Under the pieces are notes generated by a model, which was given only the letters and a program-made list of their open reading frames with translations, was not told the origin of the DNA and did not search any database. A stretch of DNA of 64,000 nt from Escherichia coli (GTDB lineage: Bacteria; Pseudomonadota; Gammaproteobacteria; Enterobacterales; Enterobacteriaceae): the NCBI RefSeq assembly GCF_048403405.1, contig NZ_CP183129.1. One strand, given 5' to 3'. Positions 3,545-63,700 of the stretch are shown here, piece after piece; position 1 is the stretch's first letter, and every line of letters begins with the position of its first letter. Position numbers and translations under genes: made by a program.

Positions 3545-5227
3545 ATGAAGTCTGCATTAAAGAAAAGTGTCGTAAGTACCTCGATATCTTTGATACTGGC
3601 ATCTGGTATGGCTGCATTTGCTGCTCATGCGGCAGATGATGTAAAGCTGAAAGCAACCAAAACAAACGTCGCTTTCTCAGACTTTACGCCGACTGAATAC
3701 AGTACCAAAGGAAAGCCAAATATTATCGTACTGACCATGGATGATCTTGGTTATGGACAACTTCCTTTTGATAAGGGATCTTTTGACCCAAAAACTATGG
3801 AAAATCGTGAAGTTGTCGATACCTACAAAATAGGGATAGATAAAGCCATTGAAGCTGCGCAAAAATCAACGCCGACGCTCCTTTCATTAATGGATGAAGG
3901 CGTACGTTTTACTAACGGCTATGTGGCGCACGGTGTTTCCGGCCCCTCCCGTGCCGCAATAATGACCGGTCGAGCGCCCGCCCGCTTTGGTGTCTATTCC
4001 AATACCGATGCTCAGGATGGTATTCCGCTAACAGAAACTTTCCTGCCTGAATTATTCCAGAATCATGGTTATTACACTGCAGCAGTAGGTAAATGGCACT
4101 TGTCAAAAATCAGTAATGTGCCGGTACCGGAAGATAAACAAACGCGTGACTATCATGACAACTTCACCACATTTTCTGCGGAAGAATGGCAACCGCAAAA
4201 CCGTGGCTTTGATTACTTTATGGGATTCCACGCTGCAGGAACGGCATATTACAACTCCCCTTCACTGTTCAAAAACCGTGAACGCGTCCCCGCAAAAGGT
4301 TATATCAGCGATCAGTTAACCGATGAGGCAATTGGCGTTGTTGATCGTGCCAAAACACTTGACCAGCCTTTTATGCTTTACCTGGCTTATAATGCTCCGC
4401 ACCTGCCAAATGATAATCCTGCACCGGAGCAATATCAGAAGCAATTTAATACCGGTAGTCAAACAGCAGATAACTACTACGCTTCCGTTTATTCTGTTGA
4501 TCAGGGTGTAAAACGCATTCTCGAACAACTGAAGAAAAACGGACAGTATGACAATACTATTATTCTCTTTACCTCCGATAATGGTGCGGTTATCGATGGT
4601 CCTCTGCCGCTGAACGGGGCGCAAAAAGGCTATAAGAGTCAGACTTATCCTGGCGGTACTCACACCCCAATGTTTATGTGGTGGAAAGGAAAACTTCAAC
4701 CCGGTAATTATGACAAGCTGATTTCCGCAATGGATTTCTACCCGACAGCTCTTGATGCAGCCGATATCAGCATTCCAAAAGACCTTAAGCTGGATGGCGT
4801 TTCCTTGCTGCCGTGGTTGCAAGATAAGAAACAAGGCGAGCCACATAAAAATCTGACCTGGATAACCTCTTATTCTCACTGGTTTGACGAGGAAAATATT
4901 CCATTCTGGGATAATTACCACAAATTTGTCCGCCATCAGTCAGACGATTACCCGCATAACCCCAACACCGAGGACTTAAGCCAATTCTCTTATACGGTGA
5001 GAAATAACGATTATTCGCTTGTCTATACAGTAGAAAACAATCAGTTAGGTCTCTACAAACTGACGGATCTACAGCAAAAAGATAACCTTGCCGCCGCCAA
5101 TCCGCAGGTCGTTAAAGAGATGCAAGGCGTGGTAAGAGAGTTTATCGACAGCAGCCAGCCACCGCTTAGCGAAGTAAATCAGGAGAAGTTTAACAATATC
5201 AAGAAAGCACTAAGCGAAGCGAAATAA
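3545..5227 (+). CDS. ydeN: Periplasmic sulfatase YdeN (Ser/Cys-type sulfatase, signal peptide)
   Basis: 560 aa from the MKSALKK start; N-terminal signal peptide; sulfatase motifs (…VSGPSRAAIMTGR…); preceded by aagaggaa RBS. Confidence 0.9.
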   Translation: MKSALKKSVVSTSISLILASGMAAFAAHAADDVKLKATKTNVAFSDFTPTEYSTKGKPNIIVLTMDDLGYGQLPFDKGSFDPKTMENREVVDTYKIGIDKAIEAAQKSTPTLLSLMDEGVRFTNGYVAHGVSGPSRAAIMTGRAPARFGVYSNTDAQDGIPLTETFLPELFQNHGYYTAAVGKWHLSKISNVPVPEDKQTRDYHDNFTTFSAEEWQPQNRGFDYFMGFHAAGTAYYNSPSLFKNRERVPAKGYISDQLTDEAIGVVDRAKTLDQPFMLYLAYNAPHLPNDNPAPEQYQKQFNTGSQTADNYYASVYSVDQGVKRILEQLKKNGQYDNTIILFTSDNGAVIDGPLPLNGAQKGYKSQTYPGGTHTPMFMWWKGKLQPGNYDKLISAMDFYPTALDAADISIPKDLKLDGVSLLPWLQDKKQGEPHKNLTWITSYSHWFDEENIPFWDNYHKFVRHQSDDYPHNPNTEDLSQFSYTVRNNDYSLVYTVENNQLGLYKLTDLQQKDNLAAANPQVVKEMQGVVREFIDSSQPPLSEVNQEKFNNIKKALSEAK

Positions 5228-34249: not shown

Positions 34250-34387
34250 TGGGACCCCCTTTTGATTTCTTGTTTGACACTTGCAGTTGCCAGACCGCAA
34301 GGTGTTTTAACAAATCAAAAGGGGTTTTAATAACTGGCTCAAAGCTGAAAGCTTTCCGGAACCCCCAGCCTAGCTGGGGGTTTTCTG

Positions 34388-35987: not shown

Positions 35988-38900
35988 TTACGCCTTCTCA
36001 ATGTTGACTAAGAACGCTTTATATTCCGGCGTTTGCGAGTTTGCATCACCGACATTCGGCGTCAGAGTGTTAGCGATATAACCTTTACGCGCGACACCCT
36101 CAAAGCCCCAGTGGATTGGAATACCCACCGTTTCAACCTGCTGACCGTTTACATTCAGCGGCTTCAGACGGCGCGTTACCACAGCCACCGCGCGGATAAA
36201 GCCACGCTTGCTGGATACGGTGACACGGTCGCCATTGGCGATGCCTTTCGCCGCCGCCAGCGTTTCGCTGATTTCCACAAACTGTTCCGGCTGAGCAATG
36301 GCGTTGAGCAATGCATGCTTAGTCCAGGTGTGGAAGTGCTCGGTCAGACGATAGGTCGTACCCACATACGGGAACTGCTCTTTTTTACCCATCCGCAGCG
36401 CGTCTTGTTCATACAGACGAACGACCGGGTTAGACACCACGTTCGGATGCAGCGGGTTAGTGCCCAGCGGCGTTTCAATTGGCTCGTAGTGTTCCGGGAA
36501 CGGACCTTCCGCCATTTTGTTGATGGCAAACAGGCGTCCCATCCCTTCCGGCTGCATGATAAACGGTCCGGTTAGTGTACCTGGCGCGGCATTGCCGAAG
36601 TCCGGAATATCGTTACCCGTCCACTTGCTGCCGTTCCACTGGATCAGCATCCGTTTCGGATCCCACGGTTTACCGTTGATATCCGCCGAAGCACGGTTGT
36701 AGAGTACGCGACGGTTGAGCGGCCACGCCCAGGCCCATCCCAGCGTATTCCCCAGACCGGACGGGTCGGAGTTATCGCGGTTAGCCATCTGGTTGCCCTG
36801 CTCTGTCCAGCTACCGGTGTAGATCCAGCAAGAAGATGCGGTTGTACCGTCATCACGCAGATGCGCAAAGCTACTCAGCAACTGACCTTTCTTCGCAATC
36901 AGCACGCCATTGGCATCATAGAGATCTTCCAGCGCGTAGCCGTTGTTCTCTTTAGCTACTTCGTCAGATTGCGGTTCGTGCGGCTGCTTGTAGTTCCAGC
37001 TCATCTTCATCAGCGGTTCTACGCCTTTACCACCTTCGGCCTGGTACAGCTCGCGCAGATGATGGTAGATACCCGCCAGAATTTCGCCGTCGTTACGCGC
37101 TTCGCCCGGCGCGTCCTGACCTTTCCAGTGCCACTGCAACCAGCGACCGGAGTTAGCAATAGAACCATCTTCCTCAGCAAAGCAGGTCGAAGGCAGACGG
37201 AATACTTCAGTCTGAATAGACGCAGGATCGACATCGTTCGACTCGCCGTGGTTCTGCCAGAAGGTAGAAGTTTCAGTCACCAGCGGATCGATAACCACCA
37301 TATACTTCAGCTTGCTCAGGCAGCTTACCACTTTGTTTTTGTCCGGGAAGGACGCAACCGGGTTAAAGCCCTGGCAGAAATAACCGGTGACTTTGCCTTC
37401 ATCCATCATGTTGAAATACTTGATGACGTCGTAGGTCTGGTCCCACTTGGGCAGCCAGTCGTAGCCCCAGTTGTTCTCTTTCTGCGCAGCATCGCCGTAG
37501 AAAGATTTCATCAGGCTAACGAAGAACTTCGGATAGTTGCTCCAGTAGTTCACCTGATCAGCCAGCGTCGCTTTCGGCGTGTTCGCTTCCAGATACGACT
37601 GCAAATCAACCTGTTTTTCTGACGGCAGCGTCAGATAACCCGGCAGGCTGGTAGAGAGCAGGCCTAAGTCGGTCAGCCCCTGAATGTTGGAGTGACCACG
37701 CAATGCGTTCACGCCGCCACCGGCCATACCCATGTTACCGAGCAGTAACTGGATCATCGCCATAGTACGGATGTTCTGCGCACCCACGGTGTGCTGCGTC
37801 CAGCCCAGCGCGTAAAGGAAGGTGGTTGTGCGATCCGGTGCGCTGGTGGAGGCCAGCACTTCACACACTTTCAGGAAGTCGGCTTTTGGCGTACCACAGA
37901 TGTTTTCTACTACGTCCGGCGTGTAGCGGGAAACGTGCTCTTTCAGCAAGTTCCACACACAGCGCGGATGAGTCAGTGTTTCATCGCGTTTCGCATAGCC
38001 GTTTTCATCGAACTGATAGTTCCAGGACGATTTATCGTATTGACGTTTTTCAGCGTCGTAGCCGCTGAACAGACCGTCTTCGAAAGCAAAATCATCACGC
38101 ACCAGCAGACTGGCGTTGGTGTAATGCTTAACGTATTCGGCGTTGATTTTGTTGTTTTCGATCAGGTAGCGCAAAACGCCAGACAGGAACGTAATGTCCG
38201 TACCGGAACGAATAGGTGCGTAAATATCCGCTACAGAAGCGGTACGCGTAAAACGGGGATCGACAACGATCAAGGTTGCATCGTTGTTGTTTTTCGCTTC
38301 CATCGCCCAGCGGAAACCGACGGGATGCGCTTCAGCAGCGTTACCGCCCATCACCATTACGACGTTAGCGTTTTTGATATCCACCCAGTGGTTGGTCATC
38401 GCACCGCGACCAAATGTTGGAGCAAGACTTGCTACCGTTGGTCCGTGTCAGACGCGCGCCTGGTTGTCTACCGCCAGCATCCCGAGGGAGCGGGCAAATT
38501 TCTGGGTCAGCATCCCGGTTTCGTTGCTGGCACCGGAGGCACACAGCATACCGGTAGAAAGCCAACGGTTTACCGTTACGCCCTGCTCGTTCTTTTCAAT
38601 AAAGTTAGCGTCACGGTCAGCTTTCATCAGCTTCGCAATACGGGAGAATGCTTCATCCCAGCTAATGCGCTGCCATTTGTCAGAACCTGGCGCACGATAT
38701 TCCGGGTAGCGCAGACGGTTTTCGCTGTTGACGTAATCCAGCAAACCGGCCCCTTTCGGGCACAGCGCACCACGGCTTACCGGATGATCCGGGTCACCTT
38801 CAATGTGATAAATCGCTTCTCTGGCGTTTTTCGCGCCATCACCCAGGCTATACATCAATAGCCCGCAACCTACGGAACAGTATGTGCAGGTGTTACGGAT

Positions 38901-55895: not shown

Positions 55896-57872
55896 ATGCA
55901 GCTTAATCATATCGTTAAAAGTCTGCTAATAACGGGATTATTCACCACCAGTTCTTTACCTCTCCTCGCGGCGGAAGCTCCTAAAGACGCCACCGCAGCC
56001 ACGCAACAAGCAAACAATTTACTCTACAACCAGTTGCCGTTTGCCGATAACACTGACTTTACTGATGCCCATAAAGGTTTTATTGCCCCTATCCCTCAAG
56101 ACGTGATTAAGGGCGAACAAGGGAATGTTATCTGGGATCCACAACATTACGCTTTTATCAAAGAAGGCGATAAAGCCCCTGATACGGTGAATCCGAGTTT
56201 ATGGCGTCAGGCGCAACTGATAAATATCAGCGGGTTATTCGAAGTAACTGAAGGTGTCTATCAGATTCGCAATCTCGATCTATCAAATATGACCATCATT
56301 GAAGGCAAAGAGGGTATTACCGTCGTTGATCCCCTTGTTTCAGCAGAAACAGCCAAAGTGGGTATGGATCTCTATTACAAAAATCGCGGCAAAAAACCGG
56401 TAGTGGCGGTTATCTATACACACAGTCATGTCGATCACTACGGTGGTGTTCGTGGCGTAATTGATGAAGCTGACGTTAAATCAGGCAAAGTTAAAATCTA
56501 TGCGCCAGCCGGATTTTTGGAGGAAGCCGTTTCCGAAAACATCATGGCTGGCAATGTTATGAGCCGACGAGCCAGTTATATGTATGGCAACTTATTGAAA
56601 CCTGATGTTAAAGGCCAGGTGGGGGCTGGACTGGGAACGACTACTTCAGCAGGAACAGTCACGTTGATTGCTCCTACTAACTACATCACCAAAACCGGAC
56701 AAAAAGAAACTATTGACGGGTTGACTTATGATTTCCTGATGGCGCCAGGTTCTGAAGCGCCTTCTGAAATGCTGTGGTTTATTGAAGAAAAGAAACTGAT
56801 CGAAACCGCTGAAGATGTCACGCACACCCTTCATAACACCTATTCGCTGCGTGGGGCTAAAATTCGCCAACCGCTGCCGTGGTCAAAATATATTAATGAA
56901 GCTCTCAATTTGTGGGGTGATAAAGCCGAGATTATTCTCGCTCAACATCACTGGCCAACCTGGGGCAACGATAACGTGGTCAAACTGCTTAAAAGCCAGC
57001 GTGATTTGTATCGTTACATCAATGATCAAACTCTGCGCATGGCTAATCAAGGGATGACCCGTGATGAAATTGCCGCAAACTTTAAACTGCCCTCTTCACT
57101 GGCTAACACCTGGGCGAATCGCGGCTATTACGGTTCGGTAAGTCATGACGTGAAAGCAACTTACGTGCTTTATCTCGGCTGGTTTGATGGTAACCCCGCG
57201 ACGCTTGATGAACTGCCGCCAGAAGAAGGCGCAAAAAAATTCGTCGAGTATATGGGCGGTGCTGATGCCATTTTACAGAAAGCCAAACAGGATTATGACC
57301 AGGGTAATTTCCGCTGGGTTGCCCAAGTTGTTAGTAAGGTGGTGTTTGCCGATCCAAACAACCAGGCAGCGAGAGATCTGGAAGCTGATGCGCTTGAGCA
57401 GTTAGGCTATCAGGCTGAATCTGGGCCGTGGCGTAATTTCTATCTCACTGGTGCACAGGAATTGCGTAATGGCGTACAAAAATTACCAACACCAAATACT
57501 GCCAGCCCAGACACCGTGCGTGCGATGACGCCGGAGATGTTCTTTGATTATCTTGCCGTCCATATTAATGGTGAGAAAGCGGCAGATGCCAAAACCGTGT
57601 TGAATTTCGATTTTGGTGAAGATGGCGGCACCTATAAAGTGGAGCTTGAAAATGGTGTTCTCAATCATACCGCTGGTGTAGAGGCTTCGGATGCTGATGC
57701 CACTATCACTCTGTCTCGTGATGTATTGAACAAAATTGTACTGAAAGAAGAGACGCTGAAAGAAGCCACGGCCAAAGGAGATGTCAAAATTACTGGCAAT
57801 GAGGAAAAACTCAACGAGCTGTTAGGTTATATGGATAATTTTGAATTTTGGTTCAATATAGTGACACCATAA
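55896..57872 (+). CDS. Periplasmic alkyl/aryl sulfatase (metallo-beta-lactamase fold, SdsA1/YjcS-like)
   Basis: 658 aa; signal peptide; metallo-beta-lactamase HxHxDH motif (YTHSHVDHYGG); C-terminal SCP2-like region. Confidence 0.8.
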   Translation: MQLNHIVKSLLITGLFTTSSLPLLAAEAPKDATAATQQANNLLYNQLPFADNTDFTDAHKGFIAPIPQDVIKGEQGNVIWDPQHYAFIKEGDKAPDTVNPSLWRQAQLINISGLFEVTEGVYQIRNLDLSNMTIIEGKEGITVVDPLVSAETAKVGMDLYYKNRGKKPVVAVIYTHSHVDHYGGVRGVIDEADVKSGKVKIYAPAGFLEEAVSENIMAGNVMSRRASYMYGNLLKPDVKGQVGAGLGTTTSAGTVTLIAPTNYITKTGQKETIDGLTYDFLMAPGSEAPSEMLWFIEEKKLIETAEDVTHTLHNTYSLRGAKIRQPLPWSKYINEALNLWGDKAEIILAQHHWPTWGNDNVVKLLKSQRDLYRYINDQTLRMANQGMTRDEIAANFKLPSSLANTWANRGYYGSVSHDVKATYVLYLGWFDGNPATLDELPPEEGAKKFVEYMGGADAILQKAKQDYDQGNFRWVAQVVSKVVFADPNNQAARDLEADALEQLGYQAESGPWRNFYLTGAQELRNGVQKLPTPNTASPDTVRAMTPEMFFDYLAVHINGEKAADAKTVLNFDFGEDGGTYKVELENGVLNHTAGVEASDADATITLSRDVLNKIVLKEETLKEATAKGDVKITGNEEKLNELLGYMDNFEFWFNIVTP

Positions 57873-57886
57873 ATTTACTGCATACC

Positions 57887-57909
57887 GGGCAGGTATCCTG
57901 CCCTTTTTT
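57887..57909 (+). terminator. Rho-independent terminator after the alkyl sulfatase gene (gggcagg/cctgccc plus tttttt)
   Basis: Read directly. Confidence 0.7.
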
Positions 57910-57918
57910 GGTTAAAAA

Positions 57919-59016
57919 ATGGCTGAACGAAGAAAAACGCATCACTCATGGAAAACCCGCCGCGATATGGTTATTCGCGGCATGACGATTAGTTTGCCAT
58001 GGTTTGCTTTTATCAATGTCAGTTTTGCATTGATAATTTTGCTGCGCCGTGTTCTGTTTAATGACCTTACTCCACCCTGGTTAAATGAAAAAAGCCTTAT
58101 ACATTCTATTGATATATCTGCAACGGGTATTCTGCTGATTTGCAGTGGTTTACTACTCATCCCTCGGCAAAAAACATTACCTATCCAGGTGCTATTAGTT
58201 GCCCTGAGCCTGCTATGGTCATGGTGTAGTTATCACTTTATTGCGTACTGGACGCTGCAGTTTGCTTATCCACTATGTGTATTATTAATGCTTAGTGGCG
58301 TTGTCGCACTTTATTTCCATACCCCATCATTGCTCGCATTTGTCATTCCCTTATGGTTCACCACTCCAATAGCGAGTCTTATGCTTAATCAACAGATCAA
58401 TATTCATTTTGCTGTTGTATGGTGTATTTTTTCACTGGCGCTATATGGTGGGCGACTCATTTTGTTACGTTGGTTTGAAGAAGCATGGGTACAAAACAGT
58501 TATAACAACCAGTTAATTAATCGCCTTGATGCATTAGCACATCGTGATCCTTTAACTGGGATAGCAAACCGACGTGCAATGAACAGTATCTTACACGACG
58601 CGATGGATAACGGCGGGTCATTTGCTCTTATTATGCTGGATGTCGATTTTTTTAAACGTTACAACGACACTTACGGGCATCCTGCTGGGGATCGTTGTCT
58701 AATACAAGTTGCCGACGCTCTACAGCGTTCAACTCGCCAGTCGGAGGATGTTGTTGTCCGTTATGGTGGCGAAGAGTTTGCCATCATACTTTTTAATGCA
58801 ACATTGCCGGAAGCAGAGACGGTAGCAGCCAGAGTGAAGCAAGAACTTAAACTGGCAGCTATCCCACATCAGGCATCTGCTGTTAATGCATTTGTTACGG
58901 TTAGTCAGGGGATTACCTGTTCTGCTCCCGCAAAAACGGCTGAACAAATTATTTCAGATGCCGACGCTGCGTTATACCGGGCGAAAGAAAGTGGGCGAAA
59001 TCGATGGGCTTTATAA
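57919..59016 (+). CDS. Membrane-anchored GGDEF diguanylate cyclase; start codon uncertain (could be the internal MVIRGMTISL)
   Basis: Several N-terminal TM helices and a C-terminal GGDEF domain with an intact RYGGEEF active site. Confidence 0.8.
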   Translation: MAERRKTHHSWKTRRDMVIRGMTISLPWFAFINVSFALIILLRRVLFNDLTPPWLNEKSLIHSIDISATGILLICSGLLLIPRQKTLPIQVLLVALSLLWSWCSYHFIAYWTLQFAYPLCVLLMLSGVVALYFHTPSLLAFVIPLWFTTPIASLMLNQQINIHFAVVWCIFSLALYGGRLILLRWFEEAWVQNSYNNQLINRLDALAHRDPLTGIANRRAMNSILHDAMDNGGSFALIMLDVDFFKRYNDTYGHPAGDRCLIQVADALQRSTRQSEDVVVRYGGEEFAIILFNATLPEAETVAARVKQELKLAAIPHQASAVNAFVTVSQGITCSAPAKTAEQIISDADAALYRAKESGRNRWAL

Positions 59017-59089
59017 GCATTAGGGGACTGGACAGATTACGTCTCTCCTCGCTTAACAAGGGCTGACGGAGGGTAATAATTGTCTATAG

Positions 59090-59641
59090 CTATCTTCTTA
59101 GCGATGTCTTTCTGGTATCACATTGGATCGGTGCAATTATTTTTCCTTTAATACCCATTATGTTAAGAAATTCAGAAACAGCTGTAATCTCATTGTTTTT
59201 TTCATTCGTCTTGATCTTACAAGGAATCTGACTGTGCATTATTGAGAACACACTAATAACGTGAATCGCTCCCTTGCGACGACTCTTGTCATAAGAGTAC
59301 CGGAGCGTTTTTCCATCAATTGCAATGACGTCTTTATCATCTGAAGAATGGCAGTCAAGCATCCAGTTAATAAAGCACTCATGAAATTTTTCAGGACTGA
59401 TACAGGATACAACTCTGGCAATGGTATCGTGAACAGGAATACCATTATCAAAATCACCATATTGCTTCAAAAAATCGAGATGTGTTTCCCCAAAATCCTC
59501 TATATCTTCCCAGCCTTCTGCACCCGAAATAACGGCACAAATAGTCAACAGTAGAATATCCGATAATTTATGTTCCACTTTCCAGGCTTGTCTGTAATCG
59601 GGGATAATAGAAATATGTCCCATCAATTTTTTAAGTTCCAT
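59090..59641 (-). mobile_element. H-repeat-associated (ISAs1-family) transposase remnant, N-terminal 183 codons only, frameshifted and truncated
   Basis: [51 protein letters not shown]… matches the conserved H-rpt N-terminus; the DDE catalytic region is absent. Confidence 0.8.
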
Positions 59642-60226
59642 TTTGTTCTCCTTAATTATGTAAGGAGTATTTGATCATGTATACGCAATAAAAAACAGCT
59701 TCAGGTAATGAGGAATATCTCAATTGTTAAACATAAAATGCGAATTGTCTAGTACAAAAAAGCAGCGTTACGTGATCTTTCCGTGGATCGTCAAATTGTT
59801 CGAGAGAAAATACCAACATGATGGATTTTACTGTAAAAGTAATGTCGTAGTTTAAAAACTCATCATCCGGTAAAGCCTTGTGGGGCGTGGGCTTTCATAC
59901 TTTTACCCTGATGTCTGCTATACGCCGGACACCCTTTACGTAGCATTCGGAATTCACCCGTAAATTTATCACGGCGGTATCACGAAACCTCCGGTTCTGA
60001 TGCCGCTTAGGACTAACGACACGTCAACACAGGTTCGGGTTTATTCATTTCACTGTATCTCATATAATCTGAGCACTCCCCCTGCGCTCGCTACTATGAC
60101 TCTTTACCACAGCAACCGGGGTTGTTTGGGATCGGCTTTCAACAGCAGATCCCGGTGGCTATTGCAAGTAAGTCTACTTTCCACATCAGTGTTACTGACA
60201 CAGAAAATAATGAGTTATGATCCTTG

Positions 60227-60712
60227 TCATATTTTTAATATAGCCCCATGAGCTATAGGATCAAAACCTTCTAACCATGAGGTGTTTTTATCGAATAATG
60301 CACCTGTTATATTTATATCGCCATATCTATCACATAATAAATTAGCGCCACATAAGTCAGCACCAGAAAAATTTGAATCTTTAACGTCTGCATTGCAAAA
60401 GGTTGAATTAGTTAATATAGCACCCTCAAAGTTTGCACCTATTGACCTTGAATTACTAAAGTCACTTCCAGTGAAATCTGAGTTATTAAGAATAGCGTTC
60501 ATCAGAGCCGCATTGCGAAAGACAGCATTTCTAGTTGATGTATGTTGAATCATTACATTTCTTAAATGGGAATTTTCAAATTTCGCCCCATCAAGACAAT
60601 AACCATTGAGGATGGCACGATGTAGATCCATCCCGCTAAAATCATATCCAGCAAGAGTGGTACTATCTATATCAAGAAATTTATTGGTTATTAAAAACGC
60701 GATTCTTATCAT
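60227..60712 (-). CDS. Pentapeptide-repeat protein, putative Rhs immunity protein (K-12 ydcD position)
   Basis: 161 aa; tandem A(D/N)(L/F)xx pentapeptides ([25 protein letters not shown] …); start overlaps the Rhs stop by 4 nt. Confidence 0.75.
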
Positions 60713-63700
60713 CTATTCCCCCAATCATCTAACTCCGGAAAAATTTGGCTAAACGGATATAGTGGTGCCGATAATGGACGCGTACCTGGCCGCTCAGGAG
60801 GAAGTTTATCACATAACAGACCCGCAACCATCCTGTGATTACCATTAACAATCACATTCCCATCCATATCAACCGGTGGTGCTCCACTACCATCTTCCAG
60901 CATTTGTACGTAGTGAGCTACTACGGGTACTGAGACTTTTTGTTGTACTGTCAACAAGGGACTGTTGGCCACAACCATCCTGATGTTTTCAGGTGTCGTA
61001 GGTAAACATTTAGTCTTCTCTTGACTAAAGGTATCATCCCACAATTTTGTTAAACCCATCACTGCCTGTTGTCTGTATTTATCCATGGGGTCAGCAATCA
61101 ACCAAGATGGACCTGACTGCTCTATGGAATCTTCTCCGGAGAGACCCAACGGATCTATCTTAGTAGTTGGATTCAATGGATACTGATACAGGTTCCATGC
61201 ACCTCTTAGCCCAATGGGATCCTGGGTGATATACCGCCCCTGCAACGGGTCATAGTACCGGTTGCGGTTATAGTACAGCCCCGACTCCTCATCATACTGC
61301 TGCCCCGGCAGACGGTACGGCTGTTGCAGTTGCTGCGCGCTGGTTTCGCCCAGCAGGTTTCCCCACTCGTCATACTCCCCCTGCCACGCCGTTTCCCCTT
61401 CCGGGCTGATGAGCGCCTGCGGCAGCCCCCGGTGGTCGCAGTGGTAAAGATGAAGTGTCCTCTCCGGGATGTATTCCGCCTCCATCTGGTTTTTCATCTG
61501 TTCCGCCGTCAGCCCGCACTGCTGAAGCCATGCCTCACTCTCCGCACTCACCGCACCCGCGCGCAGTTCCCGCTCCAGCCTCCCCAGCATCACCGACAGC
61601 TCCGCCGGTAGCGTCACCCCCGTGTCCTCCTGCAACACCTCCGCCAGACTCCGGTGCCGCGCCTTCGCCTGTTCACCATTCTCTGTTTCGATTCTGATGA
61701 GCGGCGTGAAGCTCCCCGGCTGGTATACCGTCTGGATACGCGTGGTGCCGGTCTGTACCGTCGTCAGCCTGTCACCGTCCCACCCGTACCAGGTCTCCTC
61801 CGGTTTACGCGACAGCGACATCCACCCCGTCAGGTCACGCTCCCGCCGCCACACCCGTTTCCCCGTCCGGCGGCCCAGCGGGTCATAGAGGTAGCGGCTC
61901 TCCACCTGTGGCTCGCCGTGCTGTATCCGCGTGTAGAACACCAGGCGGTGCTGGCTGTCGTAATGGTAGTGGTGCGTCCGCTCGTCGTGCATCCGTATCA
62001 CCCCTTCCGGGATACGGTCCGTCTTCTCCGCCAGCCTGCCGTATTCATCGTAGCGGTAGACATAGTGCGCATCTTCCGTGATGCGGTTATCCGGCCACGC
62101 CGTGAAGGTGCTGTCCGGGTGCAGTTCCGGGTCCGGCAGCCGGTTTCCTGCCGGGTCCGTCGCATACGGGATATCGATATCCAGGTTCGCCGCCGTGGTG
62201 TGAACGCCCGTCAGTCTTCCCGTGTCGCTGTAACGGTACTTCCGGCTCTCCTGCGGGCCGCTGATGCGCACCAGTTGCCCGTTATCGTTCCACGTATACT
62301 CACGGTCAAGCTGCGGAAGGTTCAGGTGCCTGCTCCGGAGCTGCCCTGTGAGGGTGTACGCCGTGGCCTGTTCGTACCCCGCTGTACTGCCCGCCCCGCC
62401 GAAGCTGCGGGCCGTCTCACGGTGCAGCCGGTCCCGCGTGTACTCGACCAGCGGCGTTCCGCCCAGCTTCATCCCCGCAAGATAACCGCTGCCATACGTC
62501 AGCCACTCCACCGGCGGCAGACCGTCCGGCTCCTGACGGGTCGCCAGCCCCTGTTCGCTGTAGACGTGCCTCGTCTCATGCTCCCACAGCATCTCCCCCG
62601 TCTCCTGGTTCTCCACCGTCTGCCGTTCGCCCGTCAGGCGGCCTTTATCGTCATAGCCGTAGTGGACCGCCACACGGTGGCCTTCGCTCAGGTGGCTGAT
62701 TTCTGTCAGCCAGCCGTGGTCGTCATACTGCCACTGCTCCGCCGGGTCGCCGTTCACCGTCCGGTGCGTGATGCGCCCGGCGTCATCGTAGTACCACTGC
62801 GTGACCTGCCCCTCATCCTCGCTGCGGATGAGCTGCCCTGTGGCGCTGTACCGGTAACGCTGTGTCCTGCCGTCAAAGCCGCGCTGCTCCGTCAGCCTGT
62901 CCACCGGGTCATACCGGAACGTGGACTGGCTGCCGTTCTCGTTGGTCAGCACGGTGATGCGCCCGGCGGCGTCATACTCCATGCTGCGCGTCAGTCCGCC
63001 CTGCGTGGTGCTGACGGCCTTTCCCCACGCATCATACTGTGTCTCACTCCGGCTGCCGTTCGGGGCAATGATAGCGGTGAGGTCGCCTGCGGCGCTGTAC
63101 TCATAACGGGTTTCACGTCCCTGCGCATCCTTCTGACTGACCAGTTGACCACGCGGGTTATAACTGCTGTAAGTGCTGATGCCTTCCTCCCGGTGAACCG
63201 CCGTCCTCTGACCGTACCGGTCGTATTCATACCGCGTCGTGTACCCTGAACAGTCCGTAAATGCCTGAAGCTGACCGTACCGGTTTCGCGTTATTCTCCG
63301 CCTCACCCCGGTTCCGTCTTCCACCGCACAGGGCAGGCCACTGCGGGAAGAATCATAAAACCAGCGCGTAATGTTACCGTTGCGCGAGACCTCTTCCGCC
63401 AGCCTGCCCTGACGGTCATATTTCCGGCTGCGGCGCAGCCCGTCCGGGTACGTCACTGACGTCAGTTGCAACTGGTTGTTGTAACCATACCGTACCGTCC
63501 TGCCGTCCGGCAGTATCACTGAAGTCAGCTTTCCCGACGCCATATGCAGCCGGTACTCCGTCCGCCGTCCCGCCGCATCCGTCTGCGCCTTCAGCCTCCC
63601 CGCCTCATCATACTCGCTGCGGGTGATGCTCCCGTCCCCATACTCCTTCTTCACCACCCGCTTCAGGCCGCCCTCGCCCTCCGTGTACAGCACCTCCCGC

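Follow-up and report, generated by a model that had tools for sequence, protein, structure and literature searches.

The gap behind a Rhs toxin/immunity cassette at the Escherichia coli rhsE locus reads as a mosaic of group II intron and insertion sequence remnants

The group II introns E.c.I2 and E.c.I9 home into Rhs insertion sequences (ISEc1–5) at two different positions (Leclercq & Cordaux 2012, PMC3522654). For E.c.I9, a full-length copy 'in a Rhs region' has been described from ATCC 8739; O157:H7 and other strains have orthologous fragments of 193 bp, and BL21 and REL606 have a 159-bp fragment in another Rhs region (PMC3522654). These fragments were named E.c.I9-tr1 (193 bp) and E.c.I9-tr2 (159 bp) under the Zimmerly intron database nomenclature and belong to class D (PMC3522654).

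The published arrangement was recovered in the loci compared here. In L003 to L006, the intron 5' end (GTGTGCCG) lies directly after the first ~15 nt of the H-rpt terminal repeat, with CAGGGAAAGATCAC(C)G as the homing site. The rhsE locus of O157:H7 (L004) and the Rhs region by yafV (L005) reproduced the published fragments at 192 and 159 bp, and both fragments stop exactly where a complete H-rpt terminal repeat begins. E.c.I9 5' fragments beside H-rpt were detected in ~2,500 of 5426 E. coli genomes, with various cut points and ~57–209 nt kept. The layout at L004:3895-4130 and L005:3906-4095 consists of 15 nt of H-rpt repeat, the intron 5' part and a complete H-rpt starting from its own repeat, and in L004 a partial repeat (GGGAAAGATCA) occurs twice in tandem, at 3895 and 3908. 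This layout and the varied cuts suggest repeated H-rpt left-end events, possibly with tandem H-rpt arrays as their source.

The gap described here lies in a 64-kb window (the whole stretch of DNA that was analysed) covering an rhsE-type E. coli region, in which narW-narI-yddE-nhoA-yddH-pptA is followed by an alkyl-sulfatase gene, a GGDEF gene and then minus-strand features. The gap was read on the minus strand, the strand of the Rhs, immunity and H-rpt genes. The minus-strand features, by coordinate, and the four segments into which the gap was divided are as follows.

59090-59641, minus strand: truncated ORF-H, 183 codons (PF13808, 4e-34)
59642-60226, 585 bp: the gap under study, between the ORF-H ATG and the stop codon of the pentapeptide-repeat gene
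60226-60159, minus strand, 68 bp: segment d, 3' flank of the immunity gene, spacer
60158-59911, minus strand, 248 bp: segment c, assigned as a piece of domain I of an E.c.I9-type group II intron
59910-59786, minus strand, 125 bp: segment b, assigned as the left end and part of the leader of a second ISAs1-family IS ('ISAs1-2')
59785-59642, minus strand, 144 bp: segment a, assigned as the H-rpt (ISEc1-type) terminal repeat and leader, up to the ORF-H ATG
59648-59667, minus strand: hairpin CUCCUUA-N6-UAAGGAG in the H-rpt leader, pairing the ORF-H Shine–Dalgarno AAGGAG with an upstream complement
60227-60712, minus strand: pentapeptide-repeat gene, putative immunity gene (PF00805, 1e-19; PGAP 'pentapeptide repeat-containing protein')
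60709 onward, minus strand: Rhs core gene

Of 5426 complete E. coli genomes, 144 contained the entire 585 bp with 100 % identity (carriers were counted from 99 % identity over the full length), and the PGAP annotation of all these carriers leaves the gap blank. No further copy was found within the window by self-BLAST. Intron or IS sequence was positively identified for 517 of the 585 bp, with the remaining 68 bp making up 12 %. The gap is very probably a non-coding mosaic of nested mobile-element remnants 3' of the Rhs toxin/immunity cassette at the rhsE locus. An earlier note on this DNA had described a large gap of mixed composition with no convincing ORF on either strand, and both points held. 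There were 12 ORFs of at least 20 aa, the longest being 83 aa, and a Pfam scan of the 83-aa and 43-aa ORFs gave no match; apart from a few of 20–27 aa inside one fragment, the ORFs cross junctions between segments. GC content was 50.0 % in segment c and 32.6, 39.2 and 35.3 % in the other three (35 % in segment d), and this mixture is explained by the division into four segments. The GC-richer block that the note had placed at 59880..60130 does exist, although its actual limits are 59911-60158. An H-rpt promoter, also proposed as the content of the gap, fits only 59642-59785 (144 bp), which holds the H-rpt left end and leader and is the predicted site of a promoter, RBS and hairpin; it does not account for the rest.

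Segment c is identified from its sequence as an internal domain-I fragment of an E.c.I9-type group II intron. On the minus strand, 60051-60159 matched Rfam model RF01999 (group-II-D1D4-2) with 48 bits (gathering cut-off 36); bona fide copies scored 82–105 bits. The segment corresponds to nt 80–339 of E.c.I9 (class D), with a 12-nt deletion that removes one hairpin. Its identity to the E.c.I9 copies at L006:6095-6354 and L003:4001-4260 was 84.6–85.8 %, and the label 'E.c.I9-like' rests on this 85 % identity; identity to the E.c.I2-type intron in L002 was 70.6 %. The intron of NCTC9066 (~L006:6016-7905), to which segment c is 84.6 % identical, is a full-length E.c.I9 with ltrA, a 92-bit RF01999 match and an RF00029 match (domains V/VI), and it occupies the same rhsE position, between the last immunity-type gene and ORF-H. 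In an RNAalifold consensus of five family members, 10 pairs showed compensatory changes, and the domain-I helices of the family covary. The window copy keeps most helices of this consensus, with one hairpin missing and a few pairs broken.

Both ends of the intron are lacking in segment c. With sensitive BLAST, homology in other genomes always begins at 60158, and since homology starts at nt 80 the 5' splice-site motif GUGYG and the homing-site exon are absent. The domain V/VI model RF00029 had no match at its gathering cut-off anywhere in the 64-kb window, and none with E ≤ 1 when 58900-61000 was scanned. There is no intron-encoded reverse transcriptase; the fragment ends at nt 339, and in L006 the ORF begins near nt 488. 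Without a 5' splice site, domains V/VI or a reverse transcriptase, segment c can neither splice nor move. The search for a parent intron gave none that exceeds 90 % identity to segment c. Among E. coli genomes and plasmids, the closest match to the full 248-bp fragment had 85.8 % identity. Among GTDB species representatives (one exact-pattern scan), only Escherichia sp. MOD1-EC7003 carried partial E.c.I9-like pieces, with 90–91 % identity over 81–143 nt and a range of 83–91 %. No other RNA family reached the Rfam gathering level in the gap. An RsmY match at 59872-59969 (15.8 bits against a cut-off of 57, E=0.6) was rejected as chance. Elsewhere in the window, gathering-level matches were obtained for the Hfq-binding sRNA STnc490 (34259-34382, minus strand, 146 bits) and the selenocysteine insertion element SECIS_3 (38395-38453, minus strand, 84 bits), both of which are expected for this chromosomal region.

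Segment b is recognized as the left end of a rare second ISAs1-family IS. It consists of a terminal inverted repeat (CAGGGTAAAAGTATGAAAGCCC...) and part of the leader, and is cut 47 nt before the expected transposase ATG. Over 127 nt it is 83 % identical to the left end of a near-complete copy (L001:14884-15010, minus strand), and the similarity sets in precisely at the CAGGG terminus. The near-complete copy itself (L001:13701-15008, minus strand) is located upstream of the Rhs gene of the carriers, slightly past the right edge of the window (~65.3–66.6 kb in window numbering). Its terminal repeats, CAGGGAAAAAGCATGAAAGCCC... and ...CCCTG (CAGGG...CCCTG), match at 26 of 34 positions, and its ORF has 378 codons with one internal stop and resembles ORF-H by eye. 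ISAs1-2 was confined to the same ~145 genomes, each of which has two copies. A possible AAAGCC...GGCTTT hairpin in segment b was discarded (z=+0.61), being merely part of the ISAs1-2 terminal repeat region. The two ISAs1-2 copies have the same orientation and bracket the Rhs cassette, which hints that the cassette arrived as one block. A further ISAs1-2-like left-end fragment, with 85.8 % identity and no transposase gene, was observed at L010:3501-3613 (E. coli 2020CK-00188). Immediately downstream of it is a gene pair coding for a peptidoglycan-binding protein and a lysozyme inhibitor of the LprI family, with complete ISAs1 elements on both sides of the pair. The fragment is another orphan IS left end beside a putative toxin/immunity pair.

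Segment a is assigned to the left end and leader of the multi-copy H-rpt element. When the whole gap was searched by megablast, matches were returned in 5310 of 5426 E. coli genomes (median of 3 places per genome), and nearly all of these covered query positions 1 to 141–148 with 86–97 % identity, beside ISAs1 transposase genes (ybfD, ybfQ). The segment was aligned with the H-rpt left ends of L002, L004, L005 and L006. Its terminal repeat (CACGGAAAGATCACG) is at 59785 and reads CACGG where other copies read CAGGG; from 59785 downward, CACGGAAAGATCACGTAACG aligns to the CAGGGAAAGATCACG termini of other copies with one mismatch. H-rpt homology extends over 59785-59091 (~695 bp), about the first half of the element, and ISEc1-type copies share 91–92 % identity with the remnant over 672–697 nt. 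The right terminal repeat of H-rpt is absent, as homology to complete copies stops at 59091. PGAP labels ORF-H a pseudogene ('ISAs1 family transposase; frameshifted; incomplete; missing C-terminus'), and PF01609 reached 16.8 bits on it against a cut-off of 23, short of a complete transposase of ~378 aa. Neither IS piece in the gap has a right end or a complete transposase, and both are thus remnants rather than mobile elements. The break at 59091 may be the edge of an insertion or replacement involving the sulfatase and GGDEF genes. In this lineage, alkyl/aryl-sulfatase and GGDEF genes (55896-59016, the GGDEF gene at 57919-59016) are located between pptA and the truncated H-rpt, unlike the rhsE loci of L004 and L006, where H-rpt directly abuts pptA.

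The leader hairpin appeared in both the minimum free energy and the centroid folds of the RNA, and alone it is not exceptional (z=−1.35). A role in translational control can be proposed for it from knowledge of other IS elements. Promoter-like matches for sigma-70 numbered four in the gap against 3.5 in shuffles, and terminator-like matches two against 0.7, indicating no excess of either; the two promoter-like sites in the H-rpt leader are consensus matches only. No segment of the gap is expected to retain intron or IS function. Residual activity is plausible only in the form of a promoter and RBS in the H-rpt leader, driving the transposase fragment, and of passive read-through from the rhs operon.

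Segment d had no E. coli homologue outside the ~144-genome lineage. By eye, parts of it resemble the intron 5' end or a decayed H-rpt repeat (GTGTCAGTAACAC versus GTGTGCCGTAGGCAC, and GATCATAAC versus GATCACGTAAC). These candidates were rejected, and in local alignments of segment d with the E.c.I9 5' end, the H-rpt end and the ISAs1-2 end the score was reached by 152, 114 and 177 of 300 shuffles, respectively. A strand-specific, G-U-rich hairpin of 16 bp was likewise dismissed as a terminator or stabilizer (z=−1.07; 33 of 200 shuffles fold equally well; no U tract).

The pentapeptide-repeat gene next to the spacer ends with a TGA at 60229-60227 and is located 3' of the Rhs core and the C-terminal toxin region. 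The stretch 60428-60747, which takes in the final 35 nt of the Rhs ORF and ~285 nt from the start of the pentapeptide-repeat gene, has 95 % identity to a pentapeptide-repeat locus elsewhere in E. coli, which is present in 132 further genomes and as a second copy in the carriers. Homology ends abruptly at 60428, and the 3' part of the gene is confined, together with segment d, to the carrier lineage. The 'immunity' gene thus looks chimeric. The last 170 aa of the Rhs protein (window 60712-61221, minus strand), including the toxin domain after the DPLGL motif, gave no Pfam match. The pentapeptide-repeat fold is a known DNA mimic. The pairing at this locus of a toxin without a Pfam family and a pentapeptide-repeat protein may merit separate study.

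Both IS junctions in the gap fall exactly at IS termini. The intron piece is joined to the CAGGG of ISAs1-2 and the ISAs1-2 leader to the CACGG of H-rpt, and the same precision is seen in L004 and L005. Terminus-exact junctions suggest nested insertions or IS-mediated adjacent deletions. The starting point would have been an intron-bearing H-rpt or Rhs downstream region that was remodelled stepwise. At each step, either an ISAs1-family element would have inserted into the element upstream, with loss of the remainder, or an intramolecular adjacent deletion at the left end would have removed the sequence from the IS left end up to some upstream point. A separate rearrangement would be required for the 5' truncation of the intron at nt 80 (the junction of segments d and c), because this junction has no IS-terminus signature. 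The order and mechanism are deduced from junction positions only, and no intermediate genome for the rearrangement steps was found. The 15 % divergence of the intron piece and the two lineage-only copies of ISAs1-2 suggest that the cassette and intron piece came from outside; a donor of either was not found.

Other readings give the gap a function or a different origin. Co-option as an RNA, whether the whole gap or its intron-derived core serves as a 3'-UTR element or sRNA of the rhs–immunity operon or as an insulator of read-through toward the convergent GGDEF gene, is considered very unlikely. The 585-nt minus-strand RNA folds somewhat better than shuffled sequences (z=−2.61), but this is expected because ribozyme domain-I helices are present. 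No intrinsic terminator is predicted on the minus strand from the immunity gene to ORF-H, and for this reason the gap is probably transcribed passively with the rhs–immunity operon. The persistence of E.c.I9 5' fragments by H-rpt in the ~2,500 genomes could also be taken to favour co-option; however, vertical inheritance of a neutral scar explains it, and the ~57–209 nt kept in other lineages belong to the 5' part, whereas the window copy is without nt 1–79, so that the stretch in common is only ~50 nt. The loss of one hairpin from the window copy, the unexceptional hairpin of segment d and the presence of the intron model as the sole Rfam family above threshold all weigh against a functional RNA, and the small RNA envisaged in the earlier note accordingly found no support. 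Conservation within the lineage is uninformative on function, as all 144 carriers are identical across the gap. The lack of conservation beyond the lineage, which the note had named among the findings that would refute it, does not discriminate either; segments a and c owe their conservation outside the lineage solely to being parts of repeated mobile elements. Less probable again is a reading in which the intron-derived RNA (59911-60158), still structured in part, and the IS leaders would control read-through from the rhs–immunity operon into ORF-H and the GGDEF antisense strand, or the weaker one in which segment c would be all that is left of an E.c.I9-like intron lineage not yet sampled, having come with a foreign Rhs cassette between two copies of a rare ISAs1-family IS.

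Decayed orphan Rhs toxin/immunity fragments, which the note had also considered, are a highly improbable filling for the gap, rated below any of the RNA readings. Orphan modules do exist at the corresponding place in other rhsE loci; in NCTC9066, the interval from the main Rhs gene to the intron holds a partial gene for an RHS core domain together with two small genes. In addition, the 68 bp of segment d are the only part outside identified intron or IS sequence. However, intron or IS sequence takes up the other 517 bp, with the GC-richer block being the intron piece and its AT-rich neighbour the ISAs1-2 left end, and segment d, at only 68 bp, has no homologue in other E. coli Rhs loci. In a nucleotide search of 5426 E. 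coli genomes, 59642-60226 matched no other Rhs cassette and gave intron and IS matches only, segment d being too short for protein-level comparison. Least probable of all is that the gap encodes a small protein, a further suggestion of the note, for which the 83-aa ORF (60000-60251, plus strand) is the leading example. This ORF is the longest and has an ATG start, and the antisense frame is also free of stops (~57 codons) across the homologous part of two E.c.I9 copies (L003, L006). It nevertheless lacks a Pfam match, is called by PGAP in none of the 144 genomes and is a chimera of unrelated pieces, running antisense to the intron piece and through segment d into the 3' end of the immunity gene. 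By our own count, ~11 of 53 aligned residues differ from the E.c.I9 copies (~79 % amino acid versus 85 % nucleotide identity). The protein thus diverges faster than the DNA, and no purifying selection is shown on this frame. A stop-free frame of ~57 codons would arise by chance at roughly 6 % per frame (our own estimate), and the open antisense frame in intron domain I is probably due to chance.

The best-supported statement is that the gap is an ordinary inert scar, neither a new gene nor a new RNA. The gap at rhsE of ~144 E. coli genomes is now labelled base by base as an intron fragment, two IS left ends and a 68-bp spacer. With this labelling it can be dropped as a candidate sRNA or small-protein locus, which is of use for annotation but carries little biological weight. 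The terminus-exact IS junctions are consistent with repeated remodelling of the sequence 3' of Rhs cassettes by ISAs1-family left ends.

Among known systems, segment c is closest to E.c.I9-tr1 and E.c.I9-tr2, with which it shares the intron family, the Rhs immunity gene upstream, the H-rpt downstream and the state of a dead fragment. It differs from them in being ~15 % diverged, above the 10 % rule for a new name (PMC3522654), and in occurring in only ~144 of the 5426 complete genomes. Both of its ends are cut off: nt 1–79 and the 5' exon are gone, while in tr1 and tr2 the true 5' end is retained along with a 15-nt exon derived from the repeat. Its 3' side is cut by ISAs1-2, and theirs by H-rpt. 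The H-rpt portion resembles the H-rpt/ISEc1 IS in its left ~695 bp, with the terminal repeat, leader and Shine–Dalgarno in place, but it is a remnant without the right half and right repeat and has CACGG instead of CAGGG. The E.c.I2-type intron of NMBU-W13E19 (L002) is a more distant class D relative, which likewise targets the Rhs IS and has the same RF01999 substructure, with 70.6 % identity in domain I; unlike segment c, it is complete, with ltrA and domains V/VI, and its insertion site is a different one, close to the 3' end of ORF-H. Fragments of E.c.I9 next to Rhs-linked H-rpt are already published (PMC3522654), and all that the gap adds is one example with greater divergence and a different truncation.
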